Virus record (IMG/VR): IMGVR_UViG_3300023270_000001
Coordinates: 4,140-68,139 of that record
DNA: 64,000 bases
DNA from: a virus
Direction: 5' to 3' (one strand)
A model generated the notes under the pieces. That model searched no databases and was not told where the DNA came from. It worked only from the letters and a program-made list of their open reading frames with translations. The position numbers were made by a program, and so were the translations under genes. This document shows, in pieces, positions 954 to 59,257 of this stretch; the stretch's first letter is position 1, and each line of letters begins with the position of its first letter.

Positions 954-1838
954 ATGGAAATCACCGAGCACAACCTCGCGAAGTTCCGCTCCTGGGTCCT
1001 CGACCGCGGACGCTCCAGCGGCACGGCCGCGCTCTACGTGTCGAACCTGAAGTCATGCGCCAAGGACCGCCAACTCACCCGCCGCCTCGTGGCCGGCCGC
1101 TTGGCGCCGAACTCGCTGCGGACCAATATGGCTGCGTTGCGCGCGTGGGCGAAGTTTTCCAAGAACCCGGAGATGGCCGAGGTGCTCAAGGACATCCGGC
1201 TCCCACCGGCTCGGCGTCTGAGCACCAAGCAGCCGCTCGACCTCGAGCAGTGGCGCGAGGTCATCCGGCATATGCAGACGTGCTCGATGCGCAACGAGGC
1301 GATGCGCCAGGTATTGCTCATCATGGCCATCCGCGGACTCCGCTGTAGCGACGTCCTACGCATGCGGAGCGACGACGTCCTGAGGGCGCTTGCCACTGGC
1401 AAGCTCGTCTACGAAGGCAAGGGACGCAAGCGCATGGAGATCTCGGCCGAGCCCATCCGTAAGCAGTTGCGCGAGCTCGCCGTATTCCAGGACTGGGAGC
1501 GCGTCCGCGATCTCATCAGCGCGTCGAAGAACCCCGAGGTGGCCCGGGTGATGGTGTACCGCGCGGCGAAGCGGACCGCTGCCAAGGTCGACATCATCAA
1601 CATGTCGCCGCACCGCTACCGGCACACGTTCGCGGCGAACTATCTGAGCCAACTGGCGGGCGACCCGAATGCGATCGTGAAACTGCAGCGGTACATGGGG
1701 TGGGAGAGCATGGAGACCGCAGCGCGCTACGTGAGCGCGGTGTCGCAGGACGAGCTCGACAACATCGGCGCTGGCCTGGTGAGCGGTCTACTCAAGGCGC
1801 CAGCCGTGGCCGATCGCGCCAAGCGCAAGCGACGGTAG
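954..1838 (+). CDS. Tyrosine recombinase / integrase
   Basis: Catalytic set GLRCSDV (R), HRYRH (HxxR), MGW, ARY (Tyr); start inferred at 954 (930 alternative). Confidence 0.85.
   Translation: MEITEHNLAKFRSWVLDRGRSSGTAALYVSNLKSCAKDRQLTRRLVAGRLAPNSLRTNMAALRAWAKFSKNPEMAEVLKDIRLPPARRLSTKQPLDLEQWREVIRHMQTCSMRNEAMRQVLLIMAIRGLRCSDVLRMRSDDVLRALATGKLVYEGKGRKRMEISAEPIRKQLRELAVFQDWERVRDLISASKNPEVARVMVYRAAKRTAAKVDIINMSPHRYRHTFAANYLSQLAGDPNAIVKLQRYMGWESMETAARYVSAVSQDELDNIGAGLVSGLLKAPAVADRAKRKRR
1390..1402. repeat. Palindrome TTGCCACTGGCAA, copy 1 (inside integrase)
   Basis: Exact match read from sequence. Confidence 0.9.
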
Positions 1839-1952
1839 CCCCGATCCAGCCGTCCGACGTTGATGGAGCGCCGCAGCGTACTCTACTCCATGGAAGCCCG
1901 CTCAACCTGAGCTACTGCCGGACCGGGGCAGAGTCATGGTACACCACGGCCA

Positions 1953-2303
1953 ATGCAATTCCAAATTCATGTCGGCAAGTCTCGCAACCTCGGTCCCATT
2001 CAGTTGTTCTCGGCGTTCGACTCCATCGGATCGCCGAACAACGTGCTCGACACGACCTCGCCGATCGTCGCGAGTTGCCCGAGCGAGCGCTGTCGCGTCG
2101 GCGTCCTCGCCGATGGCCGGACGGTGTATATCGACGGGGTGACCGAATCGCCCGGCCCCATCAACGTGAACATCAACGCCCTCGGCAAGCAGGCGACCAT
2201 CCAGGTCGAGGTGGTGGCGGCCGAGCCGCCGCAGTTTCCGGCGGCGATCGTCGTCGACACGTCGATGGTCAGCCCCGAGTACACGACTCCGGCCACGCGC
2301 TGA
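1953..2303 (+). CDS. Hypothetical beta-rich (Ig-like?) protein
   Basis: Protein-like composition with alternating hydrophobic strands. Confidence 0.55.
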   Translation: MQFQIHVGKSRNLGPIQLFSAFDSIGSPNNVLDTTSPIVASCPSERCRVGVLADGRTVYIDGVTESPGPINVNINALGKQATIQVEVVAAEPPQFPAAIVVDTSMVSPEYTTPATR

Positions 2304-2322
2304 GGCGTGCTACGGTCTGGGG

Positions 2323-2472
2323 ATGAAGAACACCAGACCACGCGTCGCCCTGAAGCTCGAGACCATCCGCACGCTCCGCCCGGCCAACCTCACGCAGGTG
2401 GCGGCCGGGGTGGTGGCGACGAGCAAGCAACCATGGTGCAGTGACACCTACAGTGCCAGTTGCCCCAAATAG
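2323..2472 (+). CDS. 49-aa RiPP (lanthipeptide-type) precursor-like peptide MKNTRPRVALKLETIRTLRPANLTQVAAGVVATSKQPWCSDTYSASCPK
   Basis: Hand-translated, below the ORF-track cutoff; leader LKLETIRTL...L.QVAAG; Ser/Thr-rich core with two Cys. Confidence 0.6.
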   Translation: MKNTRPRVALKLETIRTLRPANLTQVAAGVVATSKQPWCSDTYSASCPK

Positions 2473-2532
2473 GTCAGCGCAGCGACCTCAACGCCTGCGA
2501 CTAACAGCGCCGGCGCCGAAACGATGAAAGCC

Positions 2533-2676
2533 GGGTAACGGCTCGAGTCTGTTGAATGTAGGTCCCGGATGGTGCATCCCCTTGCCATCCGACGTTACTC
2601 GGCGGACTGAGACACCGAGCCAAATACACCCTGTCCTTGGGGTCTCCCCGAGGCGCTATGGTTCGAGCCGCTACCC
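2533..2676. ncRNA. Candidate multibranch structured RNA
   Basis: Closing stem 2533-2546/2663-2676 (13 of 14 pairs) enclosing hairpins 2566-2591, 2598-2619 and 2635-2653. Confidence 0.45.
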
Positions 2677-2727
2677 GTAGTGTCTTCTTACCACGGATAC
2701 ACCAGCAGATGGTACGGTGTATCTCAC

Positions 2728-5020: not shown

Positions 5021-5821
5021 TCACAGCGTATCCGAGGTGACGATGCGGAGAGGGGCCGGACCAACCGCCCCCCGGATGCCGATCACGAGCGCATCAAACA
5101 TCCCGGTGGTGGTCGCGTTGACGATGGTGTTCGACGATGCCGGGAACGGGATGAGCGTCGGCGCCAGGATCTCCCGTTCCTGATGATACGGCGGCCCGGA
5201 TAGGGGTAGGATCGGGTTCGGATTGGGGGAGATAGCGAAATTCACGCCGATGATCTGGAAGAACATCCCCGACGCGGGGGTGCGATTCGTGAACTGGATG
5301 TACGCGAACTTCCGGCTATAGAACGGGACCACGATCCAGCACGTTCCGCCGAACGCGTTGTAGTTCTGATACACGAACTGCTTGTCGATGCGCGGTGGAA
5401 CCAGCGTAGGCGGCGCCTGGAAATACTGGACCACGTCGAGAACCGGTGTCTGAAAGTTGATCGTGTCGTTGGTGAAATCGAACGTCCTGGGGCGGAAGTT
5501 CGGGTCGTAGATATCGGCCGACCAGAAGAAAATCCGACCGGGGACCTTCGACGGCGAGTAGGTCTCGCTGGGGTTCGCGTCGACTCGACCCACAAACGAC
5601 CGCTGTGGGCCGATCGTCGCCTGCTGCACGAAGCCAGTGACCTGGTCATCGAAGTAATTGACGTTGATGTTCGCTAGGTCCGAGTCCGGACCGAGCGACA
5701 GGGCCAGACAGCCCTGGTCGGACTCGTAGATGTCACCAGGAGATGACAGCAGCGTGCGTAGACGGAAGAACTGGGATCCGCCGACGCAGTAGCCGTTCGC
5801 TGAGGGCTGAGGGTATGACAT
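5021..5821 (-). CDS. Beta-rich putative virion protein (vertex/spike-like)
   Basis: Aromatic/Asn/Pro-rich beta-strand composition, MSY start, next to capsid paralog module. Confidence 0.55.
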   Translation of the reverse strand: MSYPQPSANGYCVGGSQFFRLRTLLSSPGDIYESDQGCLALSLGPDSDLANINVNYFDDQVTGFVQQATIGPQRSFVGRVDANPSETYSPSKVPGRIFFWSADIYDPNFRPRTFDFTNDTINFQTPVLDVVQYFQAPPTLVPPRIDKQFVYQNYNAFGGTCWIVVPFYSRKFAYIQFTNRTPASGMFFQIIGVNFAISPNPNPILPLSGPPYHQEREILAPTLIPFPASSNTIVNATTTGMFDALVIGIRGAVGPAPLRIVTSDTL

Positions 5822-5839: not shown

Positions 5840-5852
5840 TTGCCAGTGGCAA
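5840..5852. repeat. Palindrome TTGCCAGTGGCAA, copy 2 (intergenic)
   Basis: Exact match. Confidence 0.9.
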
Positions 5853-5855: not shown

Positions 5856-6365
5856 CTACAGCTTCGAGCGAGACCGGACGAGGTCCAGCACGCTGCCGCC
5901 CATCGACCCGAGTACCGAGGTCAGGAGCCCGGTGATGGTCTCGAGCCACGGCACCGCCTCGACGAGGACTTTGATCCTGTTCACCGTCGTGGCGGCGACG
6001 TAGAGCTTGTTGCCCTTGCCGATGTTGAACGTGGTCGCGACGCCCGTCTGCAGCAACTGCCCCTTGCCAGACAGCACCGGGGTCAACTGCTGGTTCTCGC
6101 CGACCGCGACGGGGCCGGCGGTCTCGAGCGTCAGGGTCACGCGAGCCCACAGCCGATCGCCGTTGTAGATGATTTGCGGCGGCTCGCCGGTGACCGGGAC
6201 CTTGGTGATGTAGGTGTTCGCCTGGTACCGGTACTCGGACTGGCCGCTCTGGACCGCCGGGGTCTGGACAGTGGCCACCGTCCGATTCGTGGAGATGGGG
6301 CCGATCTTGCTGCCCGCGCCGCCGGGCTGCGGTCTCGTTCGGGGCGTGAGAATCAAGGGCTTCAT
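5856..6365 (-). CDS. Putative minor virion protein (beta sandwich plus amphipathic C-terminus)
   Basis: Strand-rich core ARVTLTLETAGPVAVG...KLYVAATTVNRIKVLVE; amphipathic tail. Confidence 0.55.
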   Translation of the reverse strand: MKPLILTPRTRPQPGGAGSKIGPISTNRTVATVQTPAVQSGQSEYRYQANTYITKVPVTGEPPQIIYNGDRLWARVTLTLETAGPVAVGENQQLTPVLSGKGQLLQTGVATTFNIGKGNKLYVAATTVNRIKVLVEAVPWLETITGLLTSVLGSMGGSVLDLVRSRSKL

Positions 6366-9804: not shown

Positions 9805-11112
9805 TTACTTCTTGGGCTTCTTGGCCTTGACCGGCTTCGACCTCGCGGCCTTCGGAGGCGACTCACCCATGACGAGCGCCATGTATGCTCCCCATGGCTT
9901 ACCGAAATTCTTGGGGTCGATGGCGCCACGCGCGTACCGCAGTCCGTCCATGATGCCGCGCACGTAGTCGTGGGTCGGCGGGCGCTCATCGGCCACACGG
10001 ATCAGGTCGTCGAGGATCGCACCCGGGGTCGGCCTCATGGGAGGGGGCGTATCGATCGACGTCTGCTCGCCCTTGGCCGGCTTCTTGGGCTTCTGGTCGC
10101 GCTTCGCGATGACCTTCGCCTCCTTGGCCAGAGTTCGCGCTGCGCGCGCGTCGCCAGACGACTTCGCCTCCACGACCGCCTCTAGGGCAGCCTTCTGCTT
10201 TGCCGGCTCCTTGGTGGTGGCCAGGTCCTTGAACTGCTCATCCGTCACTTCCCCTTTCTGCCACCGCAGCAACAGCGCGGGCGTGGCGGTCTTCATCGCG
10301 CCCAAGATCTTGGAGCACCACGACTCGGAGCGATCGATCGCCTTGGCGATCTTCGCCATCGTGTATTCCTTGCCGGTGTCCTCGTCCTTAGAGGAGCGGA
10401 GCCGCTGGGCGACGTCCGCGAGCTCGAAGCTCGAGAGCCCCTCGCGGGTCGAGGCCATCTCGACCACCTCGAGCAGGAGCTCGGCGGCGACCGCCGGGGT
10501 CCAGTCGATGGGTTCCGGCTTGTAGTAGAACACCGGGACGAGCGTGTCGCTCGGTAGGCCCAGGTATTCCATCGCGCGCGTCCGGCGCTGGCCGTCGATC
10601 GCCAGGAGGACGGTGCCGCCGTTTGCCTTGATGGAGACGACGTCCAACGGCTGCTTGAGGCCGGCCGTAACAATGCCCGTCTCATCGGTGGTGCTGCGGG
10701 CCGAGATGCTCTCGGCGAGCGCCTTGATCTTGGCGTCCTCGAGACCCGTGCGTTGGCGCGGGTTCTGCCAGTGCTTGTACTCGATCCGGATCGAGCTCAG
10801 ACGCTCGTACCGAACCTCGCGCTCCTCGGCCGGCGCCGCAGGCTCCTCGGTGGCAGCGGCCACCGGTGCGCTGTCCGACTTCGGCTTCGATGCCCGCTTC
10901 TTGGACTGGCCTTTGTTTTTGCTCTTGGGCACCTCCGGCTCATCGGTGGGCGCCTCGGCCTCCGGGTCTGGAACCAGGACGACCTCCGGATCCGGGGTTT
11001 CCTCGGCGTATGGGTCACCTTCGATTTCGTCGGTCAACTCGGGCTCGGTGTCGTCGAGCTCATCGGTCTCATCGATCTCGGTCGCGGGGTCAATATCGTC
11101 ATCGAAACGCAT
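9805..11112 (-). CDS. parB: ParB/KorB-family protein (CTPase domain plus HTH) with acidic N-terminal tail
   Basis: QNPR, LAESI, GLKQPLDV, IDGQRR ParB boxes; HTH TMAKIAKAIDRSESWCSKIL; no parA seen in window. Confidence 0.75.
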   Translation of the reverse strand: MRFDDDIDPATEIDETDELDDTEPELTDEIEGDPYAEETPDPEVVLVPDPEAEAPTDEPEVPKSKNKGQSKKRASKPKSDSAPVAAATEEPAAPAEEREVRYERLSSIRIEYKHWQNPRQRTGLEDAKIKALAESISARSTTDETGIVTAGLKQPLDVVSIKANGGTVLLAIDGQRRTRAMEYLGLPSDTLVPVFYYKPEPIDWTPAVAAELLLEVVEMASTREGLSSFELADVAQRLRSSKDEDTGKEYTMAKIAKAIDRSESWCSKILGAMKTATPALLLRWQKGEVTDEQFKDLATTKEPAKQKAALEAVVEAKSSGDARAARTLAKEAKVIAKRDQKPKKPAKGEQTSIDTPPPMRPTPGAILDDLIRVADERPPTHDYVRGIMDGLRYARGAIDPKNFGKPWGAYMALVMGESPPKAARSKPVKAKKPKK

Positions 11113-11307: not shown

Positions 11308-12429
11308 CTACGTCGTTCCTATGGCTTGGATCGCCGCATGGATGAACTGGGCGGCGACTTGCGGGACGATCGAGTTGCCGTAGCCCCGCAGAAGCCCCAC
11401 GCGGCCGGGTACCCCTGTAGCCAGCGGGAATGCTCCGGGTTCAACTGGCCGGGCGACCGGCTGGCCTCCGGCGGGGTCTCGGCAGAGGATCCAGTCGGCT
11501 GGGTTCCAGAATCCGCGAGTTGCACCTGCATCGCCAGGGACGTCAACGAGACGCCCATGCTCACGCCCCGGTCCGCAGCTCGTTCCGCGCACTTCGTCTT
11601 GCGCGCCATGAATGTCTCCGGCGTTCCGCCGGCCTCGTGTGCGGCCGGGGTTGCCCATGCTGCGAGCGGAGCCACGGTCGACAGTTGGCTGTCCATCCCG
11701 CCCGTCTTGTGGTCCCGTGCCACCGGGGTCGGCCAGAACGTGAGCGTCGCTTCGCTGTTCAGTCCGATGCCGCGCTTTCCGTCCGCCTCGCGAGCGCCGT
11801 TGGCGTTGCTGGTGATCGGCGTCGACCATGCCGCCATCTTCGCCGCTCCGGTCAACTTGAGGCATGGCTGAGTTGGGTCCCCGTTGCGGTTGCTGTACAG
11901 CGATGCCTTTGAGCCGTCGGTCGCCAGGGGCGTAGGCCACGAAGTACAGCCGCTGTCGGATGTGCGGAGCGCCAACGCCCGCAGCGCACAGATCCGCCGC
12001 CCCGACGGCGTAACCGCATCGTTCCAGGTCAGTCGAAACAGCGTCGAGCCACTCGAGGCCATCGCGGCTCGCAACCTGTTCTCCAAAGATGATTGGAGGG
12101 CGGCACTCTCGGATGAGTGAGAACCATGCTGGCCAAAGATGTCGAGGGTCGAGAACTCCGCCCCCCTTGCCCGCGTCCGAGAACGGCTGGCAGGGGCACG
12201 ACCCTGACCAGACGTCGGCGGAGTCGGGTACTCCAGCGAGTCGAAAAGCATGCGACCAACCTCCGATGCCGGCGAAGAAGTGCCGCTGGCCAGGGCCGGC
12301 GACGTCGGCTGGGGTGAGGTCGGCGATGGATCGCCGGTCGACGGTTCCTTGCGCGATGTGGCCATGGGCGATGAGGTTCTCCAGCCAGGTGGCGGCGAAG
12401 TCGTCGTTCTCGTTGTAGAGCGTGGTCAT
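11308..12429 (-). CDS. C5-cytosine DNA methyltransferase (main frame)
   Basis: Motif I FFAGIGG, IV CPCQPFS, VI FGEQV, VIII PHIRQRL, X GYGNSIVPQVA. Confidence 0.9.
   Translation of the reverse strand: MTTLYNENDDFAATWLENLIAHGHIAQGTVDRRSIADLTPADVAGPGQRHFFAGIGGWSHAFRLAGVPDSADVWSGSCPCQPFSDAGKGGGVLDPRHLWPAWFSLIRECRPPIIFGEQVASRDGLEWLDAVSTDLERCGYAVGAADLCAAGVGAPHIRQRLYFVAYAPGDRRLKGIAVQQPQRGPNSAMPQVDRSGEDGGMVDADHQQRQRRSRGGRKARHRTEQRSDAHVLADPGGTGPQDGRDGQPTVDRGSARSMGNPGRTRGRRNAGDIHGAQDEVRGTSCGPGREHGRLVDVPGDAGATRGFWNPADWILCRDPAGGQPVARPVEPGAFPLATGVPGRVGLLRGYGNSIVPQVAAQFIHAAIQAIGTT
11319..12365 (-). CDS. Nested alternative-frame polypeptide, candidate beta subunit of the C5 methyltransferase
   Basis: 348-aa ORF in a second frame with four W[PSA]TP repeats and GQLNPEHSRWLQGYP (motif IX-like). 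Confidence 0.65.
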   Translation of the reverse strand: MATSRKEPSTGDPSPTSPQPTSPALASGTSSPASEVGRMLFDSLEYPTPPTSGQGRAPASRSRTRARGAEFSTLDIFGQHGSHSSESAALQSSLENRLRAAMASSGSTLFRLTWNDAVTPSGRRICALRALALRTSDSGCTSWPTPLATDGSKASLYSNRNGDPTQPCLKLTGAAKMAAWSTPITSNANGAREADGKRGIGLNSEATLTFWPTPVARDHKTGGMDSQLSTVAPLAAWATPAAHEAGGTPETFMARKTKCAERAADRGVSMGVSLTSLAMQVQLADSGTQPTGSSAETPPEASRSPGQLNPEHSRWLQGYPAAWGFCGATATRSSRKSPPSSSMRRSKP

Positions 12430-36488: not shown

Positions 36489-36492
36489 GCCC

Positions 36493-36945: not shown

Positions 36946-36946
36946 T

Positions 36947-37069: not shown

Positions 37070-37081
37070 CACCAGCACCAA

Positions 37082-39198: not shown

Positions 39199-39211
39199 GG
39201 AGACACCACCA

Positions 39212-39475: not shown

Positions 39476-39485
39476 ACTCGGTTCC

Positions 39486-40010: not shown

Positions 40011-40021
40011 AGGCGAAAACG

Positions 40022-41683: not shown

Positions 41684-41686
41684 TAC

Positions 41687-43179: not shown

Positions 43180-43186
43180 GGATCCC

Positions 43187-43933: not shown

Positions 43934-43948
43934 ACAGGGAGTTCATCT

Positions 43949-46777
43949 ATGGCGAATCAATTCGTTTCTCTCGCAGTACCGCTCGGCAATGGCGTCGGCG
44001 CCGCCACGGATGTCTCGACGTTCGGGGCCACCAAGACGATCACGGTCGTCGGCACCGCGCTGTGCACCATCACCATCGAACTCAACAACGACGCCGCCCA
44101 GGGCGGTGGCTGGCAGGCGGTGGCCAGCATTCAGAACAGCGGCTCGACGACCATCAACGTCGCGGCGCGGTTCCTGCGCGTGCGCGTCTCCGGCTACAAC
44201 GTGAACGTCGGTGGCACGAGCACGGTGAACGTCGGCGGCACGACCTCCGGCACCACGTTCGCGTCGCTGACCGTCCCGGCGGGGAACGGCGTGGGCGCGT
44301 CCGTAGACGTCAGCGCGGACATCGGGCTGTTCAAGACGGTGCAGGTCGGCGGCGCCTTCGGCGGCGTGCTGATCGTCGAGATCTCGGTCGACGGCACCAC
44401 CGATTGGGCGCAGCCGTTCCAATTCCAGGGGTCGAACCGCCTCGCGAGCGGCGTCATCGTCGCGAAGTTCATGCGCGTGCGGCGCTCGGGCGTCCCCGTG
44501 AACAACCCGGGCACCCCGCTGGTCAACGTCGGCTTCACGACGACGTCCGAGGACGCTGGCACCTCGGGTGCGGTCGCGATCTCCGCGGGGTCGCAACTGG
44601 CGACGACCGGCACCGTCGTGTTCTCGAACTCGAACGGCGTCACGTTCGGGATGTCGGGCTCGTCCATCGTCACCGCGAGCCACGATGGCCCGTCGGGGAT
44701 CGCGGCGGCCGGCTCGACCGGCACATCGGGCACCATCGTGTTCTCGAACGCGAACAACGTCTCGTTCGGCATGAACGGGTCGGTGATCACCGCGACCGCG
44801 CAGACCGCTGGCGGCACCGCGTCGGGCATCGGTATCAGCGCGAGCGCATCGCTGGTCACCACCGGGGTGATCACGATCTCGAACAGCAACGACATCACGT
44901 TCGGGCTGTCGAACGGCGTGCTCACCGCATCGCGGCTCGGTCCCACCGCGATCGCCGCCGGCACGCAGACCGCCTCTTCCGGCACGGTGGTGTTCTCGAA
45001 CTCGAACGGCGTCTCGTTCGGCCTGTCCGGCTCGTCGGTGGTTACCGCGAGCTACACGCAGTCGACCGGGCCGGCGGCGATCAGCGCCGGTACCGCCTCG
45101 GTTGGCGCCGGTACGGTCGTGTTTTCGAACTCGAACGGCGTCTCGTTCGGCCTCAGCGGATCGACGGTGACCGCCTCCAAGCTCGGCCTCGACGCTGTCA
45201 TTGCCGGGACGGCCACGCAGTCCGCCGGCACCGTGTCGTACGCCAACTCGAACGGCGTCACCTGGGGCCTCAGCAACTCCACCTTCACCGCCTCGGTGCG
45301 GCCGTCGATCGGCGTGCAAGCGGGCGCATCGACGCTCACCAGCGGCACGGTGGTGTTCTCGAACTCGAACAACGTCTCGTTCGGCTTGAACGGGTCGATC
45401 GTCACAGCCAGCGCGGCGGGCGCCAGCGCCGCGGCGATCGCGGCCGGCACGCAGACCGCGACGGCGGGAACCGTCGTGTTCTCGAACAGCAACGGCGTCA
45501 CGTTCGGGATGAGCAACTCGTCCATCGTCACCGCGAGCTACAGCCAGTCGACCGCGCCCGCCGCGATCAGCGCCGGTGCGTCGTCGGTCGGCGCTGGCAC
45601 GGTAGTGTTTTCGAACAGCAACGGCGTCTCGTTCGGCCTGTCGGGGTCGACTATCACTGCGTCGGCGCTGGGCGTGGGGCCGAATGCGATCTCCGCCGGT
45701 TCGACAATGGCGACGGCCGGCACGGTGGTGTTCTCGAACTCGAACAACATCACGTTCGGGATGAGCAACAACATCGTGACCGCGTCGTTTTCGGCCACGG
45801 GAGGTGGCGGCGGCGTAGCACTCAGCGCCTCCGGGACGAGCCAGTCCGCCGGCACGGTGGTGTTCTCGAACGCCAACGGCGTCTCGTTCGGCATGAGCGG
45901 ATCGACGATCACCGCGTCCGTGCCGGCAACACCGACCCTCGTGGGCGGGTACTTCGGCGACGGCTCCGACGGCAATGTCAGCATCACGGCCGGATCCACG
46001 CTCACGCGCGACATGTTCTATGACACGCTCACCGGTTCCTCGAGCGTGACGCTCGATTCGGCGGGGTTCCGGATCTTCTGTCGGACCGCGCTCGTTGGCC
46101 CTGGAAGCGGCACCTTCACGATCTCGCGCAAGGGCAACGACGCAGCCGGCAGCACCGGCGGCGTCGGGTTTCTGGGCACCGAGGGCTCGCTGAACAGCTT
46201 CAGCGGTGGCGGTTCCGACGGCCTCCAGAACAACGGCCAGAACGGCGGCGACACCAACAACGCTCCCACGGCGTTCCGCCCTGGCACCGGCGGCAACTCG
46301 GGCGCCTCGAGCAGCGGCAACACCGGCGCGACGGGCGGCGGCATCACCAACCTGATCCCGGTCTCGGTCGGTGGCATCAATAACCTCCCCGCAGCCCAGG
46401 TCGCGCGCCTCGGCACAACCAATACCGCCTCGATCTCCGGCGGCGCCGGCGGCGCGTCGGGCGCTGGCGTGACCGGCGTATCCAACGGCGGCGGCGGCGG
46501 CGGCGGCGGCGGGTATCTCGTGGTCATGGCCCGCACGGTCACCAACCCGGCCAACGTGCTCCTGACCGCCGCGGGCGGCGCCGGGGGCAACGCCGGTGCT
46601 GGCGCGGGTGGCGGTGGCGGTGGTGGCGGCGGATACATCTGCCACGCGGTGGGCGGTGGTACCGCGGCGACGACCGACGTGGCAGGTGGCGCGGCCGGCG
46701 CCGGTAACGGCGGAGGATCAAACGGGGTCGCCGGTGGCGACGGCAAGGCGATGGTGTTCAACTTCGGCGTGGCGTGA
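43949..46777 (+). CDS. Large repeat fibre/adhesin (receptor-binding candidate)
   Basis: 11 repeats of about 40 aa with core GTVVFSNSNGVSFG, then a Gly-rich C-terminal domain. Confidence 0.8.
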   Translation: MANQFVSLAVPLGNGVGAATDVSTFGATKTITVVGTALCTITIELNNDAAQGGGWQAVASIQNSGSTTINVAARFLRVRVSGYNVNVGGTSTVNVGGTTSGTTFASLTVPAGNGVGASVDVSADIGLFKTVQVGGAFGGVLIVEISVDGTTDWAQPFQFQGSNRLASGVIVAKFMRVRRSGVPVNNPGTPLVNVGFTTTSEDAGTSGAVAISAGSQLATTGTVVFSNSNGVTFGMSGSSIVTASHDGPSGIAAAGSTGTSGTIVFSNANNVSFGMNGSVITATAQTAGGTASGIGISASASLVTTGVITISNSNDITFGLSNGVLTASRLGPTAIAAGTQTASSGTVVFSNSNGVSFGLSGSSVVTASYTQSTGPAAISAGTASVGAGTVVFSNSNGVSFGLSGSTVTASKLGLDAVIAGTATQSAGTVSYANSNGVTWGLSNSTFTASVRPSIGVQAGASTLTSGTVVFSNSNNVSFGLNGSIVTASAAGASAAAIAAGTQTATAGTVVFSNSNGVTFGMSNSSIVTASYSQSTAPAAISAGASSVGAGTVVFSNSNGVSFGLSGSTITASALGVGPNAISAGSTMATAGTVVFSNSNNITFGMSNNIVTASFSATGGGGGVALSASGTSQSAGTVVFSNANGVSFGMSGSTITASVPATPTLVGGYFGDGSDGNVSITAGSTLTRDMFYDTLTGSSSVTLDSAGFRIFCRTALVGPGSGTFTISRKGNDAAGSTGGVGFLGTEGSLNSFSGGGSDGLQNNGQNGGDTNNAPTAFRPGTGGNSGASSSGNTGATGGGITNLIPVSVGGINNLPAAQVARLGTTNTASISGGAGGASGAGVTGVSNGGGGGGGGGYLVVMARTVTNPANVLLTAAGGAGGNAGAGAGGGGGGGGGYICHAVGGGTAATTDVAGGAAGAGNGGGSNGVAGGDGKAMVFNFGVA

Positions 46778-48662: not shown

Positions 48663-49919
48663 ATGCGCATCCTGATCACCGGCGGCTGCGGGTTCCTCGG
48701 CAGCCACCTCGTCGAACACTTCCTGAAGACCACCACGGCAGAGATCGTCGTGCTCGACAAGCTGTCGTACGCCTCCATGGGGTTCGACCGGCTCCGCCTC
48801 GTGCGTGATGGCATGGACGAGGCAGAGTTCACCCGCCGCGTGCGGATGCTCAACCCGGACCTGGCCTTGCCACTGGCAGATGGGGTGGTACGCGAGATCG
48901 GCGAGGTCGATTACATCATCCACGCCGCGGCGGAGAGCCACGTCGACAACAGCATCAGCGACCCACTGCCGTTCCTGCAGAGCAACGTGATCGGCACCCA
49001 CAACCTCCTGTGGGCGGTCAGGCAGATGCCCAGCGTGCGGCGGGTATTCGTGGTGTCGACGGATGAGGTGTACGGTCCGGCGCCGATGCAGGGGTACGGC
49101 AACTTCGCGTCTCCGGCGATGGACAGGCTCGTGACGCTTGCGATGGACCTGATCGACATCCTATCCAAGTTCGGTGGTGCCGATGCTCAACTTGAGCGAA
49201 TCGGTCTCGACAAGGAAACCTATCAGCGCATCTACAAGGACTTCTGGAATACGAGACACGCAGCCATGCACAGCGGTTTCGACGAGGCGGCCTCGTTCCG
49301 CCCGGCGAACCCCTACGCAGCTGCGAAAGCCGGCGGCGAGATGGTGGCCATGGCGTACGCCAACACGTACCGCCTGCCCATCACCATCGTGAACACCATG
49401 AACCTCATCGGGGAGCGCCAGCACCCCGAGAAGTTCGTGCCGCTCGTGATCCGCAAGATTCTCACCGGCGAGACCATCCACATCCACGCCGACCCGACGC
49501 GGACGCGCGCGGGGACGCGGTTCTACCTGCACTGCCGGACGTTCGCGAACGCGCTGGCGTGGCTGGTGGAGCAGGATGCTCGCAACCACGGACACCTCGA
49601 GGACGCGAACCTCGGCGCGATCGACCCGCTTCCGCTCAAACTTCACGTGTGCGGCGAGCGCGAGATCTCCAACCTCGAGCTCGCGCAGATCATCCACGGG
49701 GTCGTCGAGCGGCACGCACGCACGCGCGCATGTCAGGACTACGAGCTCAAGTACGAACTCGTCGACTTCCACTCGTCGCGCCCAGGGCACGACCTGCGCT
49801 ATGCGATGGACGACAGCGCCATCCGCCGCATGGGGTGGCAACGCCCGATGGGCCTCGAGCAGTCGCTCGAGAAGACCGTGCGGTGGTACCTATCCAATCC
49901 CCAGTGGCTGGGGCTGTAG
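48663..49919 (+). CDS. rfbB: dTDP-glucose 4,6-dehydratase-like extended SDR with an in-frame insertion
   Basis: ILITGGCGFLG, DKLSYA, HAAAESHVDNSI, STDEVYG, NPYAAAKA, RPGHDLRYA. Confidence 0.85.
   Translation: MRILITGGCGFLGSHLVEHFLKTTTAEIVVLDKLSYASMGFDRLRLVRDGMDEAEFTRRVRMLNPDLALPLADGVVREIGEVDYIIHAAAESHVDNSISDPLPFLQSNVIGTHNLLWAVRQMPSVRRVFVVSTDEVYGPAPMQGYGNFASPAMDRLVTLAMDLIDILSKFGGADAQLERIGLDKETYQRIYKDFWNTRHAAMHSGFDEAASFRPANPYAAAKAGGEMVAMAYANTYRLPITIVNTMNLIGERQHPEKFVPLVIRKILTGETIHIHADPTRTRAGTRFYLHCRTFANALAWLVEQDARNHGHLEDANLGAIDPLPLKLHVCGEREISNLELAQIIHGVVERHARTRACQDYELKYELVDFHSSRPGHDLRYAMDDSAIRRMGWQRPMGLEQSLEKTVRWYLSNPQWLGL
48867..48879. repeat. Palindrome variant TTGCCACTGGCAG (one mismatch)
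   Basis: Read directly. Confidence 0.65.
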
Positions 49920-49963
49920 CAGCCGACTCGAATCGAACTTCCCGATAACCCGCAGGAGTAGTC

Positions 49964-50770
49964 ATGCCGAGCGACCGCGAGAACGTGCTGTCCGCGCCCT
50001 GTACGTGCGGCAGCGGCAAGCCCTACAAGGACTGCCACCAGGCCGTGCCGATCGCCACCAGCGGCAACGGAACGCCACTGCCAGGGCGATACACGGCTCC
50101 ATACCCAACCCATTTCCAGGGGGAGACCCAGAGCATCCCGGCGCTCCAAGAGCCGGGGCAAGGAGAAGGGGCTCTCGCCAAGCCACCGGTCACCCGCAAG
50201 CTGGATCTTGCCAGTGGCCAGTCGCCCAAGGACGGCCACGAGGGCGTCGACATCTGGCCCGGCGCCCAGCACGTCGTCAACCTCCAGGAGTACCCCTGGC
50301 CGTTCGAGGACGAGTCGGTCCTCGAGATCCACTGCTCGCACTACATCGAGCACATCCCGATGGAGTACGTCAACCACTGGCCGATGAAGGTGCTCTACGA
50401 GACTCCGGTTCGCAAGGACGCGCTGTTCGCGTTCTTCGACGAGTGCTATCGCATCCTCGTGCCCGGCGGCTGGATGCACGTCACCTGGCCCTCGCATCGC
50501 TCGGATCGCGCGTTTCAGGATCCGACGCACCGGCGGTTCATCCCCGCGCAGACCATGATCTACATGGCCGAGCAGTGGCGGCGCGACGCCAAGCTCGACC
50601 ACTACGCGGTGGACTGCAACTTCGCGGTGTCGTGCAACCCGACGATCTCCGAAGAACTATCCCTCCGGAACCCGGAGGTCGCGAACAAGCAGATCAACAA
50701 CTACTGGAACACCACCGTCGACTGGGTGGCGAAGCTCCAGAAGTTGCCGCGGTTGCCGCCAAAGACCTGA
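49964..50770 (+). CDS. SEC-C motif plus SAM-dependent methyltransferase-like protein
   Basis: CTCGSGKPYKDCH; KLDLASG, SHYIEH, ECYRILVPGG, DPTH. Confidence 0.75.
   Translation: MPSDRENVLSAPCTCGSGKPYKDCHQAVPIATSGNGTPLPGRYTAPYPTHFQGETQSIPALQEPGQGEGALAKPPVTRKLDLASGQSPKDGHEGVDIWPGAQHVVNLQEYPWPFEDESVLEIHCSHYIEHIPMEYVNHWPMKVLYETPVRKDALFAFFDECYRILVPGGWMHVTWPSHRSDRAFQDPTHRRFIPAQTMIYMAEQWRRDAKLDHYAVDCNFAVSCNPTISEELSLRNPEVANKQINNYWNTTVDWVAKLQKLPRLPPKT
50208..50220. repeat. Palindrome variant TTGCCAGTGGCCA (one mismatch)
   Basis: Read directly. Confidence 0.6.
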
Positions 50771-50850
50771 TTTCAGGCGACACGGCAAGGATAGCCTGGC
50801 ATCCTCGAGTTCAGGCCGAGCAGTACGGACCACGCCAGGACTGAGCGACA

Positions 50851-51027
50851 ATGAAAATCGTCCACCACAAGCCATATGCTCGCGGCGTTTCGCAACTGAT
50901 GTACGTCGGCGACAGCGAGGCTGTCGATAAGGCGCTCATCGAGAAGAAGGTGATCGGTCTCGGGTTGGCCGCGTTCGTATTGTGGATCCTCGTCACCGAG
51001 AAGCCGAGGATCTACAGGTCATGGTAG
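50851..51027 (+). CDS. 58-aa tail-anchored protein with YVGD motif, missing from the ORF track
   Basis: Hand translation MKIVHHKPYARGVSQLMYVGDSEAVDKALIEKKVIGLGLAAFVLWILVTEKPRIYRSW. Confidence 0.55.
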   Translation: MKIVHHKPYARGVSQLMYVGDSEAVDKALIEKKVIGLGLAAFVLWILVTEKPRIYRSW

Positions 51028-51254
51028 CCGGCGGCCTTCACGAGCGCCGGACCTCGCGGGATGGAGCGACCGACTTCCAACTATGGAAGCGGCCCGACGG
51101 CAGCAGGTTCTACGCGCTCCCGTGGTGGATGCACGCGCAGCCGGTGGCCGATATCGCGCCGGACCAGAAAGCGCTGGGTTCATGGATCTCGTGGGACGGT
51201 GAGCGCTGGCGCCGCTATCAACCCGTCCAGGACGACGCCTACACCGACTGGTAG
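51021..51254 (+). CDS. Hypothetical Trp-rich protein
   Basis: Overlaps upstream gene. Confidence 0.5.
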   Translation: MVAGGLHERRTSRDGATDFQLWKRPDGSRFYALPWWMHAQPVADIAPDQKALGSWISWDGERWRRYQPVQDDAYTDW

Positions 51255-51257
51255 CCC

Positions 51258-51764
51258 ATGCGCCTGCTCATCCGATACTTCGCCACCACGGACGACTCGC
51301 CCACCGGCAAGGTCGCCCTCGAGTACCTGAAATCGCTCCTGAGCATCGCACCGGTGCGCGTTGGGTCGATGACCGGCATGCTGTCGGGTTCCTGGGAACC
51401 CTACGCTCAGCTGCTCGCCACGCCGCTCCACGCGCGCTACGTCAACATCGTGTGCTGCGCCTCGAGCCGGTGGTCCTGGGTGCAGAACGTGCCCATGACG
51501 AACGCCAAGGGCCAGCGGGACGGCGTCGCCAGCGGGCGCCAGGAACTCTACACGGCCGGGGTTCACAACGTTCTCCTGGCACCTTCGTTTCCGGTGGACC
51601 CCTACGCGATCACCACCGCTGCGCGCTACGAAGCCGTGGTGACGCCGACCGACCAGTACATGGCCATGTGGCACAAGCACGCGATCGACACGACCGTGAT
51701 CCCGATCCCGATCTCGAACGACATCGACCACGCCCGCTTGCGGAGCGCGGTCACGCCTGCCTGA
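51258..51764 (+). CDS. Hypothetical protein resembling a GT-B N-terminal half
   Basis: Start RLLIRYFA...TGKVA parallels KVRYYG...TGYG of the 52673 gene. Confidence 0.5.
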   Translation: MRLLIRYFATTDDSPTGKVALEYLKSLLSIAPVRVGSMTGMLSGSWEPYAQLLATPLHARYVNIVCCASSRWSWVQNVPMTNAKGQRDGVASGRQELYTAGVHNVLLAPSFPVDPYAITTAARYEAVVTPTDQYMAMWHKHAIDTTVIPIPISNDIDHARLRSAVTPA

Positions 51765-51787
51765 ACAACTTCCAAGGAGACTCTGAG

Positions 51788-52081
51788 ATGAAGATTCCGA
51801 CACCGGGACAGATCGTGCTGTTCCACTTCCACGATCGCGAACGCAAGGCGCTCGTCACTCGTCCTGCGGTCGTCGTCATCCCGCCTGATGACAACAGCGG
51901 CAGGCTGTTCTGCGGCCTGTATGTGATGTGGTGGCCGGACGACAAGCCGAAGCAGCCACAGATGCTGATTCTGAGCGGGTATGCCGCCAGCAGCATGCAT
52001 GTCCCGACGACGGTCGCGCCCATGGCGTCGGACGGCGCCCCGGCTGACAACACGTGGACGCACCGCCCGGAGGATCTGTGA
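51788..52081 (+). CDS. Small protein, tandem paralog 1
   Basis: MKIPTPGQIVLFHF...TRPAVV...WTHRPEDL. Confidence 0.65.
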   Translation: MKIPTPGQIVLFHFHDRERKALVTRPAVVVIPPDDNSGRLFCGLYVMWWPDDKPKQPQMLILSGYAASSMHVPTTVAPMASDGAPADNTWTHRPEDL

Positions 52082-52335
52082 AGATTCCGACGATTGGGCA
52101 GATCGTGCTATTCCACTTCCGCCTAGGCAGATCGCAGCGCCTGTTCACGAGGCCGGCATGCGTCATCGCCGCCGAAAAAACCGGCCACTGTGACCTGAAC
52201 GTCTTCTGGGGCGCGGAGGAATATATCTACGCGCGCACGGACCGCGCGATCAAGCCATTGGTTCTCGACGTTATCATCGCGCCGGATGGCATCCCGGACA
52301 ATCACACGTGGACGTTCCGCCAGGAGGATCTGTGA
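52078..52335 (+). CDS. Small protein, tandem paralog 2
   Basis: MKIPTIGQIVLFHF...TRPACV...WTFRQEDL. Confidence 0.65.
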   Translation: MKIPTIGQIVLFHFRLGRSQRLFTRPACVIAAEKTGHCDLNVFWGAEEYIYARTDRAIKPLVLDVIIAPDGIPDNHTWTFRQEDL

Positions 52336-52676
52336 TCGACATCAAGGCGGAGCCTCGCGTGGTCACCTGGACGCGTCGAGGCGAAGTTTGCATTGGCGTC
52401 AAGAGTTGCGAATGGTGCGCAACTCTCACGCCGGATCCTACCGATGAACAGGTCATCGAGTTCATCAAGAAGAATCCCCACACCACGACGATGTGGCCGT
52501 TCGGCGGCGAGAACTACGGCGAGTTCATCCCGTCCGGATGGCGACACGTCACTATCGACGCGGATGGAAGCCCAGAATCGGGCCGCGGTGAGCGCGGAAT
52601 GCTGTGCCCGGATTGCGTCGGTCGACTCCGACAGGCGCTCGCGGATCTGAAGTCCGGCAAGGATGGCCGGCGGTGA
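52332..52676 (+). CDS. Zn-binding hypothetical protein
   Basis: CEWC and LCPDC. Confidence 0.6.
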   Translation: MIDIKAEPRVVTWTRRGEVCIGVKSCEWCATLTPDPTDEQVIEFIKKNPHTTTMWPFGGENYGEFIPSGWRHVTIDADGSPESGRGERGMLCPDCVGRLRQALADLKSGKDGRR

Positions 52677-53833
52677 AGGTCCGCTACTACGGCCACCTCG
52701 GCAAGCCCACCGGCTACGGCGATGCCGCCGGCGAGTTCTGCATGAGCATGCTCGAGGCCGGGATCGACCTCGAGATCTCCACCGACGCCAAGCAATGCCC
52801 GAACCGCTTCTTGCCACTGGCACCTTTCATCCGGGACGTGAACGAGGACAGCGCGGACGTCGACGCGGTCATCATCCACACGCTGCCGGTGAGTTGCGGC
52901 GACGTCCTAGGCGCCGTCGGTCACCTGTGCAAGGGTGTGCCGCGGATCGCGTACACGACTTGGGAGGGGTTCTCTCCGATCTCGCAGGCGGTTGCTAAGG
53001 CGCTCACCCCGTTCGACGCGATCTGGGTTCCGAGCAAGCAGACCTGCCATGCGGTGAAACACGGGCCGGGCGACTTTGACCTCGCCAAGCGCGTCGAGAT
53101 TATCCCGCACGCCTACGACCCGGCGACCAGCGCGCGCCATCGCGGGTGGCGACCAGCGACCAGCGCGTACAACTTCTACTACATCGGCGCCTGGAACCGC
53201 CGCAAGAACGTCGAGGGCCTCATCCAGGCGTACATCCGCGCGTTCGACGGGCATCACGACGTCCACCTGCACGTCCATTCGGCGGGGGCGCCGCAGACAG
53301 CGGGGCGGTTCGCGGCAATCGCGACTGGCGTACCGCAGGAGCAATGGCCGCCTATGTCGTTCTCCACTCAGCACCTCGCGGACGACGAACTCGACGCGCT
53401 CCATCAGGGCGGCCACTGCTTCGTCACCGCGACCCGGGGCGAGGCGTGGAACCTCCCCGCCTTCGAGGCGATGCTCGCACGGCGGCACATCATTGCGCCC
53501 AAGGGGCAGGGGAGCGACGACTTCCTCGCGAACACCTCGGCCGACCGCTACCGGTGCGAGGTTCGGCCGGCCGGCGGCGAGATCCGCACGGTGTCGATGG
53601 ACCCCGCCACCGGCACCGGCCGGATGCAGTACATCGGCGCGCAAGGGATGTCCGTGCACGACGACTGGCACGACCCGGATCCATCGCAACTTGCGATCGC
53701 GATGCGCCGAGCGTATCTCGAGCGCATCACCAGCCTCAGACTTGACTACGACCCCGCCGACCGGTTCTCGCGCAAGGTCGTCGGGGCGAGCATCTATAAC
53801 GCGATCGCGAGCATGAAACGGAAGACCTCATGA
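52673..53833 (+). CDS. GT-B (GT4-like) glycosyltransferase
   Basis: YTTWE, FDAIWVPSKQ, IIPH, RRKNVEGLI, TRGEAWNLPAFEAM. Confidence 0.8.
   Translation: MKVRYYGHLGKPTGYGDAAGEFCMSMLEAGIDLEISTDAKQCPNRFLPLAPFIRDVNEDSADVDAVIIHTLPVSCGDVLGAVGHLCKGVPRIAYTTWEGFSPISQAVAKALTPFDAIWVPSKQTCHAVKHGPGDFDLAKRVEIIPHAYDPATSARHRGWRPATSAYNFYYIGAWNRRKNVEGLIQAYIRAFDGHHDVHLHVHSAGAPQTAGRFAAIATGVPQEQWPPMSFSTQHLADDELDALHQGGHCFVTATRGEAWNLPAFEAMLARRHIIAPKGQGSDDFLANTSADRYRCEVRPAGGEIRTVSMDPATGTGRMQYIGAQGMSVHDDWHDPDPSQLAIAMRRAYLERITSLRLDYDPADRFSRKVVGASIYNAIASMKRKTS
52811..52823. repeat. Palindrome variant TTGCCACTGGCAC (one mismatch)
   Basis: Read directly. Confidence 0.65.
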
Positions 53834-57157: not shown

Positions 57158-57412
57158 CAGGGCTGGGAGGCTGGGTCCCTCAGCGGCCCCTAAATGCGTT
57201 GGGACCTCGTGAGTTTGCAAACGCCACGTAGAGCGTGCTGACAGCCGGGAAAGACCGGCGACTCAAGGGGTGGCTCGGAACCCTGCAATCCGACGACGAG
57301 GCTCCGCTTGGTATCCGAGACGGGATTAGTTCGTTTGCCGAGACGTGGGTGATACATGATAGGCGCCCGACCCAGAGACGGGACAAGGCGGGTATTTCGA
57401 AAGGAGTCTGTG

Positions 57413-57748
57413 ATGTTGACGATACGAGCCTGGTTGCTCGGCGCTGTGGCGCTGAAAGTTCTATCTGATGTCGTCGATGCGATCGGCCGATCGGTCGACG
57501 TCGCGATCCGGGCCACAGATAAGAGGCCGGTGCTCGATTCGGTCGACAACATCAAGCACAACCGCATTCTGCTCTGCGGCGAGGAGCGCCAGTGGGTGAG
57601 CGGAACGGAGGCTGAGATCGACGACGCGGCCACCCGCATGGCTCGCCGCACCAAGCAGTGCGTCACCGTCGCGGTGGCGATCGCTCACTATCACCGGCGC
57701 GGATGCAAGGACCTCCCGGCCGGCGGCCTCGACGTCGTGGGGAATTGA
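57413..57748 (+). CDS. Hypothetical protein
   Basis: AAAGGAG RBS. Confidence 0.55.
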   Translation: MLTIRAWLLGAVALKVLSDVVDAIGRSVDVAIRATDKRPVLDSVDNIKHNRILLCGEERQWVSGTEAEIDDAATRMARRTKQCVTVAVAIAHYHRRGCKDLPAGGLDVVGN

Positions 57749-57751
57749 TCC

Positions 57752-57937
57752 ATGGCCAACTACACGATCACCTTCACGACCGTCGACGACGTGCGGTTCC
57801 CCGGCCGATACATCCTCATCGGTGAGGTCGACGGGGTGCGCTTCTACGCCGCGTTCCATAAGCGTGGACAGCACGCCGAGGACGCCATTCGTAAGGCGTT
57901 CGCCAAGGCATTCGCGACGTCCAGATCCGGCAACTGA
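57752..57937 (+). CDS. Hypothetical protein
   Basis: Protein-like, operonic. Confidence 0.55.
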   Translation: MANYTITFTTVDDVRFPGRYILIGEVDGVRFYAAFHKRGQHAEDAIRKAFAKAFATSRSGN

Positions 57938-57951
57938 ACCACGGAGCGCCT

Positions 57952-58185
57952 GTGCCCAGCCCACCCAATCCTCCCATGACGCGCGCAGAGCGAGCCGTCT
58001 GGACTGCCGTCTACGCTGCCGTAGTCGCCGACCGCGGGGCCAACGATGCCGCAACCGCCGCCTATCGAGCTCGGCAAGCGGTCGACGCGCTGCGGCGGCT
58101 CGCTGTGCTTCCAGCCGTCCAGGATGGCGATCAGATCAAGCGCGACGCTGCGGAGATCATCTTCGGACGGAAGGGACCAACGTGA
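57952..58185 (+). CDS. Hypothetical protein
   Basis: GTGA overlap downstream. Confidence 0.5.
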   Translation: MPSPPNPPMTRAERAVWTAVYAAVVADRGANDAATAAYRARQAVDALRRLAVLPAVQDGDQIKRDAAEIIFGRKGPT

Positions 58186-58763
58186 TCGACGAGTTCAACG
58201 GCCGCCTCACCGGATGGGCGCGCTTTAGCGACTGCCGCACCATGCGGTTCCGCTTGGCTCGCTCTCTGACGTCGTCGAGCCTGCTTGTGGTGGACGGATC
58301 GGTGGTCTTGATCGACCACGCGCTTGGCGGTCCACATGAGAACGTGCCGGTCAGAAGCACTGTGTTCTGCATGCTCAACCCGAGCAAGGCGGACGCGTTC
58401 AGGCCGGACAACACCGTCACGCGTGGCATGGGGTTCGCCAGCCGGTGGGGGTGTCAACTATACGAGGCTGTCAACATCGAGCCATTCCGCTCCACCGACC
58501 CGAAGGGGCTGTACACATGGACCGACAGCGATCGGAACCACGAAGAGAACCTCCAGCACATCCTGTCGGCGTGCCGCCATGCCACGATCGTCATCGCCAG
58601 TTGGGGTGTCCACGGCGAACACCGCGGTCGCGGGCGTCAGGTCCGCACGTTCCTGGCCGACCACGGAATCAGGCTCCATCACCTAGGGCTGACCAAGGAC
58701 GGCCACCCCAAGCACCCGCTATACCTGAAGGCGGACACCGAACCAACCGAATGGAGGCCGTGA
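58182..58763 (+). CDS. DUF1643-like protein
   Basis: MLNPSKAD...DNTV, VNIEPFRSTDP, IASWG, TKDGHPKHPLY. Confidence 0.8.
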   Translation: MIDEFNGRLTGWARFSDCRTMRFRLARSLTSSSLLVVDGSVVLIDHALGGPHENVPVRSTVFCMLNPSKADAFRPDNTVTRGMGFASRWGCQLYEAVNIEPFRSTDPKGLYTWTDSDRNHEENLQHILSACRHATIVIASWGVHGEHRGRGRQVRTFLADHGIRLHHLGLTKDGHPKHPLYLKADTEPTEWRP

Positions 58764-59257
58764 TGCGCGACGTTCTCGGAGAGCGCCTTGAGAGATGGGA
58801 TGCATACCTCGACGGCAAGATCACGCTGGAGGAGGCGCGCTGCGATGACTTGCCACTGGCAAGGTACCGCCTCGCGGAGGGCGACGACGGGAAGGAGTTC
58901 GACTGGAACGACGAATCGCAGGCGACGGTCGCATGCTCGCCGCTCGTCACCGCGACGCGCGCGATCTCCGCGTACAAGGTGAATGACACCTCGGAGCACG
59001 CCGAGCTCAGCCGGTACGTGAGCGTCGGCTTGAACGCCGGGATGGCGATGGAGCAAGCCTCGAGTTGGGCGCTCGAGGTGTTCTGGGCCAGCGACAACCG
59101 CCGGCCTGCTCTCACCTGCTCGGTCATTCCGCCGGAGAGCCAGCGGTTTCGCGTCGCCTGCAACACGGTGGTCGCTGCCGTGGCGGCGGGGTCGTTCGTC
59201 GCGTCCGGCGGCCTCGAGTGGCTGGCGTGGATCCTCCTGCCCTGGAGGATGTGGTGA
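58763..59257 (+). CDS. Hypothetical protein
   Basis: GGAGG RBS; overlaps. Confidence 0.55.
   Translation: MRDVLGERLERWDAYLDGKITLEEARCDDLPLARYRLAEGDDGKEFDWNDESQATVACSPLVTATRAISAYKVNDTSEHAELSRYVSVGLNAGMAMEQASSWALEVFWASDNRRPALTCSVIPPESQRFRVACNTVVAAVAAGSFVASGGLEWLAWILLPWRMW
58850..58862. repeat. Palindrome TTGCCACTGGCAA, copy 8 (coding)
   Basis: Exact match. Confidence 0.9.

Follow-up and report, generated by a model that had tools for sequence, protein, structure and literature searches.

KorB of the IncP-1 plasmid RK2 recognises 12 OB operators (TTTAGCSGCTAAA, a 13-bp palindrome with a central S) and, as a clamp gated by cytidine triphosphate (CTP), slides along the DNA to silence distant promoters (PMC11790492). 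Noc of Bacillus subtilis is an orphan ParB paralogue that works without ParA on many palindromes (NBS) dispersed over the chromosome, and ParB-type proteins also serve prophage replicons, namely SopB at several dispersed sites of the linear plasmid-prophage N15 and ParB at the one clustered parS of P1, in both cases together with a ParA/SopA motor. BisD of ICEclc is an orphan ParB-like CTP clamp that acts on gene expression over a long distance, activating transcription from few sites (PMC12409273), and orphan ParB-fold proteins are common on phages and mobile elements, almost none of them having a known DNA site or role (PMC12704722). Here we describe a stretch of 64,000 nucleotides (the window), comprising bases 4140-68139 of the complete 86,414-bp IMG/VR virus record IMGVR_UViG_3300023270_000001 (G000), over which a 13-bp palindromic word, TTGCCASTGGCAA, is dispersed and which carries the gene of an orphan ParB-family protein, P0001. 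Judged from comparative sequence analysis, P0001 is probably the reader of these sites, in an orphan ParB network resembling those of KorB and Noc.

The window holds eight exact and three one-mismatch copies of TTGCCASTGGCAA, where 0.04 copies with up to one mismatch were expected and shuffled sequences never held more than one; for exact copies the expectation is about 0.001 per 64 kb at 65% GC. Expected counts were taken from shuffled sequence and the reversed word was used as a negative control. An initial annotation of the DNA had listed the same eight exact and three one-mismatch copies, and all 11 coordinates and sequences were reproduced, while its hand estimate of about 0.001 expected exact copies agrees with our recalculation. 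In the whole 86,414-bp genome there are 10 exact and four one-mismatch copies, and none of the reversed control word. A de novo k-mer count ranked the word top among 12- and 13-mers in G000 and in each of four relatives (G001, G002, G004 and G005), these five genomes providing the 66 sites on which the site statistics are based. The C...G flanks that had been claimed for the word recurred over these sites, position -1 being C in 88% and position +13 being G in 70%, so that the full word is the 15-bp palindrome CTTGCCASTGGCAAG, outside which the flanks of the 66 sites carried no information. The central base was C in 70% of the 66 sites, oriented with local transcription and seemingly so at intergenic sites too, a count that is inflated by shared descent.

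G000 showed no second non-coding word that is dispersed in this way. The remaining over-represented 12- and 13-mers of the genome (GTGTTCTCGAAC and CGTCTCGTTCGGC) were rejected as regulatory words, because they are coding repeats within a single 942-aa protein (window 43949-46777, plus strand), which is built of at least eight repeats of a GTVVFSNSNGVSFG-type unit and has no Pfam or PHROG match. A literature search for the word matched only two unrelated plant papers on clustered regularly interspaced short palindromic repeats (CRISPR), and none of the searchable papers describes it.

The open reading frame (ORF) of P0001, at 9805-11112 on the minus strand, has a strong coding signal (GC content at third codon positions 0.86). 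The protein gave no match in Pfam or PHROGs, even at E=10 in Pfam with the KorB (PF08535) and ParB_N models included; PDB sequence searches with P0001 or its profile returned noise only, and tblastn against GenBank phages found no match. The initial annotation of this ORF as a ParB was borne out by structure only. An AlphaFold2 (AF2) model of P0001 has a predicted local distance difference test score (pLDDT) above 85 over residues 100-340, and Foldseek, at probability 1.00, matched it to Noc, chromosomal ParB and KorB, each over about 240 columns, as well as to sulfiredoxin. The best fold matches were Noc (7nfu, the top match), ParB (7bnk, 6sdk and 6t1f) and KorB (8qa9), with a target TM-score of up to 0.68 (8qa9), and the alignment to ParB, Noc and KorB covers the DNA-binding domain.

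P0001 comprises an acidic/basic disordered N-terminus, a ParB/Srx N-domain, a helix-turn-helix and a helical C-terminal dimer domain (residues 358-414), with NPR at positions 117-119, DGQRRTRA at 173-180 and the helix-turn-helix segment RSESWCSKIL at about 261-270. Residues 1-95, acidic and then basic, have a pLDDT below 50 and are missing from many homologues. NPR and DGQRRxxA are invariant or nearly so both in an alignment of 20 homologues and in a motif survey of 180 family proteins, and the alignment also shows TRxGLSSFE, the helix-turn-helix RSESWVSKIL and a conserved C-terminal PPTHDYV block. Members of the family do give weak Pfam matches, to HTH_31 (14 of the 20), HTH_ParB (10/20), KorB (4/20), ParB_N (3/20) and RepB (3/20). 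A homodimer was predicted through residues 358-414 with an ipSAE of 0.50, against 0.01 for the best control, a value reached by 21 of 30 known homodimers and by none of 23 monomers; contact agreement between the dimer runs was at least 37% and partner pLDDT at least 73. P0001 is thus a divergent member of the ParB family that shows the usual three-part architecture. There are 46 close homologues, on contigs of 60-92 kb, and the wider family of P0001 comprises at least 413 clusters at 50% identity.

The word accompanies this ParB into its relatives, as follows.

G001, 81 kb: ParB 83% identical to P0001; 11 exact and three one-mismatch copies
G002, 75.6 kb: ParB 42% identical; seven exact and seven one-mismatch copies
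G004:C411, 72.8 kb: ParB 39% identical; four exact and six one-mismatch copies
G005:C2, 88.7 kb: ParB 36% identical; eight exact and six one-mismatch copies
L030, 21 kb: ParB 37% identical; four exact copies and one one-mismatch copy

Every relative with a ParB homologue, down to 34-36% identity, carries the dispersed word, and the short contigs L007 (8.5 kb, one exact and one one-mismatch copy), L031 and L032 have a copy adjoining parB. In every relative examined (G001, G002, G004, G005, L007, L030, L031 and L032) a site lies upstream of parB or of its small operon. Within the subfamily sharing the word, the recognition helix RSESWVSK hardly varies. A distant, variant subfamily (P0157 and P0198), encoded on 60-80-kb contigs on which parB has a methyltransferase or an integrase nearby (in L156 both), has the recognition helix KSAAWVSRQL or KSQSWVSRHL, and its loci of 18.5 and 20.9 kb each contain 11 matches, at up to two mismatches, to a variant word, TTGCGASTCGCAA (expected 0.65 and 0.84). 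The two words differ by one base per half-site (TTGCCA against TTGCGA arms), alongside the change of recognition helix, and each is exclusive to its own group, TTGCCASTGGCAA being absent from the P0157/P0198 loci and TTGCGASTCGCAA from the window. This co-variation of word and recognition helix is the strongest indirect evidence that the ParB is the reader.

The word is also specific to the viruses. Following a check of host DNA that had been proposed for the motif, no exact copy was found in the remaining 3-8 Mb of three metagenome-assembled genomes (MAGs) that hold relatives, with the caveat that the binning of the relatives may be wrong and the MAGs may not be the true host. The 3-Mb bin of G005, labelled Peribacteria, has eight one-mismatch copies on its other contigs (C10, C15, C20, C22, C47, C75, C147 and C208), compared with two for the reversed control, and may hold further viral fragments.

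The placement of the sites was then considered. Over the five genomes 42 of the 66 sites lie inside genes, as do seven of the 11 in the window, in keeping with the earlier claim that most copies are coding; the copies that had been placed upstream of parB and in a divergent region are those at 11274 (161 bp upstream of the ParB start) and 24071. The sites and the features around parB are, by window coordinate:

1390-1402: exact site inside the tyrosine recombinase (integrase) gene 642-1838 (plus strand), reading L-A-T-G-K with the rare codons CTT and ACT
5840-5852: exact site in the 34-bp gap between the minus-strand core genes 5021-5821 and 5856-6365
9805-11112, minus strand: gene of the orphan ParB-family protein P0001, 435 aa
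11113-11273, minus strand: conserved leader from the operator to the parB start codon, present in G000, G001, G002 and L007
11274-11286: exact site between the stop of the C5-methyltransferase and the start of parB; candidate autoregulatory operator of parB
11308-12429, minus strand: C5 cytosine DNA methyltransferase, a frequent but not universal neighbour upstream of parB
18894-18906: exact site within the leftward small-gene array, where the sequence is weakly coding or intergenic; syntenic in G001
24071-24083: exact site in the divergent control region, at a syntenic position in each of the five genomes
28373-28385: exact site inside the core gene 27428/27842-29557 (plus strand), reading L-P-L-A
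39562-39574: exact site inside the core gene 39486-40010 (plus strand), in a short in-frame insertion without counterpart in distant homologues
48867-48879: one-mismatch site in the nucleotide-sugar epimerase gene 48663-49919 (plus strand), syntenic in G001
50208-50220: one-mismatch site in the gene 49964-50770 (plus strand), syntenic in G001
52811-52823: one-mismatch site in the glycosyltransferase gene 52604-53833 (plus strand), at the same column in all five genomes
58850-58862: exact site inside the gene 58763-59257 (plus strand), reading L-P-L-A

Syntenic sites were found between genomes with only 30-50% protein identity, the shared places being upstream of parB, the integrase, the glycosyltransferase, the gap between 5021 and 5856, the divergent control region and upstream of the 72571 gene. 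Thus the integrase site at 1390 occupies a syntenic column in G001, G002 and G004 and lies 39 codons upstream in G005, and the gap site at 5840 recurs in G001, G002 (with one mismatch) and G005. Where one position is lost, another site appears nearby, as in the integrase and in the 27842 gene, the latter having its site at column 181 in G000 and G001 and at column 645 in G004 and G005. Two sites sit in short in-frame insertions, and in one homologue FLATGK is encoded by GC-rich codons and there is no site. The peptides that the word spells in the five proteomes, LA[TS]GK and LP[LV]A, are written with it in 9 of 12 and 15 of 22 cases respectively, against a codon-usage prediction of 2-4e-4, and the codons used by coding sites each have a usage of only 4-8%. 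Chance and a by-product of protein motifs were ruled out as origins of the word by the shuffle counts, the site turnover and this codon spelling.

The sites are also evenly spaced. Their mean spacing is 5-7 kb and the coefficient of variation of spacing 0.29-0.52, compared with about 0.9 for random placement (p<0.01 in each of the five genomes, pooled p<5e-5). The even spacing, the synteny, the turnover within genes and the rare codons together indicate that selection acts on the DNA, and even spacing achieved through intragenic turnover suggests that what selection keeps is coverage of the whole genome and not control of single promoters.

At some control regions the sites lie close to promoter-like elements. 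The TTGCCA arm of the 24071 site, read on the minus strand, lies 16 nt before the -10-like ATTACT, the leftward gene starting near 23993, and a -10-like element (ATTACT, AATACC, ATTACC or ATCATC) is found 16 nt from the TTGCCA arm of the divergent-region site in all five genomes. Outside the window, the site that precedes the 72571 gene is immediately followed by TTGAC. From their sequence context some sites thus appear to overlap or abut promoters, like the class I and class II operators of KorB. The idea that the word by itself makes up a whole sigma-70 promoter was rejected, since over all sites there was neither a -10 conserved at a constant distance nor an enrichment of TATAAT-like hexamers.

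Between the 11274 site and parB lies the leader of about 160 nt, which in G000, G001, G002 and L007 has a GGCGG...CCGCC closing helix and inner hairpins, and no Rfam match. Four predicted pairs show compensatory changes, weak support given that there are four sequences only. The parB leader may be a structured, cis-regulatory RNA. Rfam and transfer RNA scans of the window as a whole gave no match.

The initial annotation had described a solo ParB and had called for a search of the full genome for parA. Searches of the complete G000 genome with PF13614 and PF01656 found no ParA-type ATPase, while the control profiles were positive in 14/14 reference genomes. P0001 lacks the ParA-binding motif [LFI]G[KR]G[LFI] (definition of PMC12704722), as do 199 of the 203 family proteins surveyed for it. 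With neither a ParA nor a ParA-binding motif, the arrangement of G000 does not belong to the ParABS systems. No XRE-type helix-turn-helix was found in G000, and the small parB neighbours and core proteins that were scanned, with part of the small ORFs, gave no recognisable DNA binder and no helix-turn-helix match.

Among described systems the arrangement works most like KorB of RK2. Both proteins combine an N-terminal domain with a helix-turn-helix and a C-terminal domain for dimerisation; both replicons carry a dispersed 13-bp palindrome with a central S, at comparable density (12 sites per 60 kb in RK2 and 14 per 86 kb in G000); and in each case part of the sites are at promoters and the rest remote or intragenic, the protein's own operon being among the targets. 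In contrast to RK2, G000 is a virus and has no IncC/ParA partner, no ParA-binding peptide and, among the proteins scanned, no recognisable KorA-like clamp-locker; its sites are two thirds intragenic, evenly spaced and subject to evolutionary turnover; and P0001 has a degenerate box III and falls below the Pfam KorB and ParB_N models. Noc, the top fold match, shares with P0001 its orphan state without ParA and its many dispersed palindromes. However, no Noc-type N-terminal amphipathic membrane-targeting helix was found in P0001, the N-terminus of which is acidic and disordered, and on a viral replicon nucleoid occlusion is unlikely. N15 and P1 share the use of a ParB-type protein on a prophage replicon, and N15 the dispersal of its sites, but both have far fewer sites and the motor that G000 lacks. 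BisD resembles P0001 as an orphan ParB-like clamp on a mobile element, but has no genome-wide, evenly spaced array. The system thus resembles the RK2 control circuit, here spread over a whole virus family. The earlier proposal, that the ParB binds these sites, is supported in part, namely by a ParB fold, the solo state, a virus-specific word and the tracking of the ParB family by that word and of the variant subfamily by its variant word; partition, global repression and genome compaction, as proposed earlier, are candidate functions.

Several observations weigh against P0001 as the reader. P0001 has no Pfam match of its own. Within box III (ENxxRxxL) its subfamily keeps R, L and E (TRxGLSSFE), but the E and N of ENxxR are replaced to give STR or GTR, whereas the distant variant subfamily keeps GN(L/I)QR; on this sequence evidence the loss of E and N may alter or abolish CTP binding or hydrolysis. 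The KorB mutant N146A retains CTP binding (PMC11790492). The co-variation of word and recognition helix is based on two lineages, and a difference in hosts could also account for it; in the 14-kb locus of P0137, an intermediate member of the family, no dispersed palindrome is obvious. The spacing tests are not independent, sites being shared by descent, although even the two most diverged genomes show the pattern. Some 20 of the 33 core genes lack an assigned function, and they were scanned only in part.

A further point against it comes from G006 (IMGVR_UViG_3300025918_000011), an unrelated 69-kb virus of 67% GC. Within 3.8 kb (bases 41194-45039; L129:3490-7335) G006 has five exact copies of the 13-mer TTGCCASTGGCAA at five leaderless promoters, four of them between a TTGAC -35 and a TATATT -10 and the fifth upstream of the -35. 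In the four former promoters another palindrome, GTGATTGSCAATCAC, lies upstream, while at the fifth, the rightward promoter of a divergent pair, it is swapped with TTGCCASTGGCAA. The cluster, which includes an XRE helix-turn-helix gene (L129:2853-3329, minus strand), resembles a genetic switch with two operators. Neither ParB_N nor a homologue of the P0001 family is present in G006, which shares with the G000-type viruses only a 47-aa enzyme domain. As far as sequence can tell, a non-ParB reader of the 13-mer therefore exists somewhere. The G006 copies are without the C and G flanks of the 15-mer, and G006 was retrieved by an IMG/VR scan for the 15-mer among 2.9 million contigs, in which the other matches listed were mostly single and chance-like. 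G006 is a probable case of convergence on one 6-bp half-site, which still keeps alive the two alternatives that involve another viral reader or a host factor.

The first of these holds that the word is read by a repressor hidden among the core genes of unassigned function, about 20 in number, parB being only one of its targets. In L5 and Bxb1, with their stoperators, and in phiC31, with its inverted repeats, a word of 13-17 bp recurs at tens of places and one phage protein silences the temperate genome; the readers are immunity repressors, not of the ParB fold, and the sites of L5 are asymmetric, transcription-oriented and intergenic. Most core genes of G000 have no Pfam or PHROG match, so that a hidden DNA binder is possible, and in G006 the 13-mer is evidently the operator of a non-ParB system with an XRE gene in the cluster. 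We nevertheless consider such a repressor unlikely, as no XRE helix-turn-helix is present in G000, the G000-type viruses and G006 have no protein in common apart from the domain mentioned above, and the word co-varies with the recognition helix of the ParB. The sites of the G000 family are, moreover, unlike oriented stoperators, being perfect palindromes that are evenly spaced and mostly intragenic (42/66).

The second alternative is that a host DNA-binding protein reads the word and was recruited separately, within the same host clade, by the G000 family for genome coverage and by G006 for promoter control. The identity of the 13-mer in two unrelated viruses speaks for it. Against it stand the absence of any exact copy from the 3-8 Mb of non-viral sequence in the three MAGs (with their possibly wrong binning), the site upstream of parB in every relative and the variant word that travels with the variant ParB; in addition, given the missing C and G flanks in G006 and the 2.9 million contigs from which it came, a chance identity of the 6-bp half-site is plausible. 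A host reader is thus also improbable in our estimate. That the word is instead a DNA modification or restriction target of the C5-methyltransferase, or a protein-free packaging or recombination signal, is very improbable. In its favour, this enzyme lies directly upstream of parB in G000, G001, G004, L030 and L031; in phages, links or fusions between methyltransferases and proteins of the ParB fold are frequent (PMC12704722), and certain proteins of that fold activate DNA dioxygenases (PMC13229309). Against it, the site network is complete in G002 and G005, which have no homologous methyltransferase, G000 has no Tet/JBP enzyme, a modification target would need neither even spacing nor a copy upstream of parB, and the 5mYOX-associated ParBs have no DNA-binding domain, unlike P0001 (PMC13229309).

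As to the virus itself, the G000 record (CheckV 100%, 32-bp terminal repeat, 65% GC) comes from an uncultured virus whose lineage, known from metagenomes of leaf litter and soil, has little annotation. None of the RNA runs searched contained the locus. Its genes include those for a tyrosine recombinase, an endolysin-like protein, sugar-modifying enzymes, a TnpB-like protein and DUF5131. No terminase or portal was recognisable among the largest ORFs of G000 with Pfam and PHROGs, and the large core ORFs scanned at 25456-43179 of the window (plus strand) matched no terminase, portal or capsid family in either collection. The TnpB-like protein, of 653 aa, is encoded outside the window (genome 74498-76459; L011:6499-8460, plus strand), just before the convergent-region site, and has a TnpB/Cas12f-like C-terminal domain (PF07282; phrog_506, transposase). 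The nucleotide-sugar epimerase and glycosyltransferase genes (window 48663-53833) and a nucleoside 2-deoxyribosyltransferase-like gene (62756-63781) may have a role in sugar or DNA-base modification. The contigs bearing ParB homologues are all of 92 kb or less and no integrated copy was seen among them, which weakly suggests an episomal or lytic state for the G000 family.

With P0001 as the reader of the dispersed 15-bp palindromes, a dimer joined at its C-termini would place one helix-turn-helix on each TTGCCA arm. The N-terminal domains would then close around the DNA, probably under nucleotide gating as in KorB, Noc and ParB, and the clamp would leave the site and slide, so that sites every 6 kb or so would bring the whole genome within its reach. 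At the sites in control regions (upstream of parB, at 24071 and upstream of the 72571 gene) bound or stalled ParB would repress transcription, including that of its own gene, while the other sites would provide genome-wide coverage, silencing or organising a non-lytic, probably episomal state without a ParA motor. The nucleotide gating, the sliding and the biological outcome, be it silencing, organisation or maintenance, we infer from analogy. More tentatively, these elements might be joined into one picture, which we offer as a possibility: P0001 would be a nucleotide-gated clamp whose sites have been selected to lie about one sliding range (~6 kb) apart, even within genes and at the cost of rare codons and insertions, and which coats the viral chromosome in a ParA-independent, chromatin-like manner, silencing or organising an episomal state in hundreds of soil virus lineages, the TTGCCA and TTGCGA variants perhaps marking incompatibility or immunity groups.

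The locus thus gives a protein-site pair with unusually strong comparative support, and with it a natural specificity switch, in which one base per half-site is matched by changes in the recognition helix, and binding, nucleotide gating and sliding range are all directly testable. If P0001 does read these sites as proposed, the KorB model of long-range silencing would reach beyond a plasmid to a whole, large virus family (at least 413 clusters) that has no ParA.

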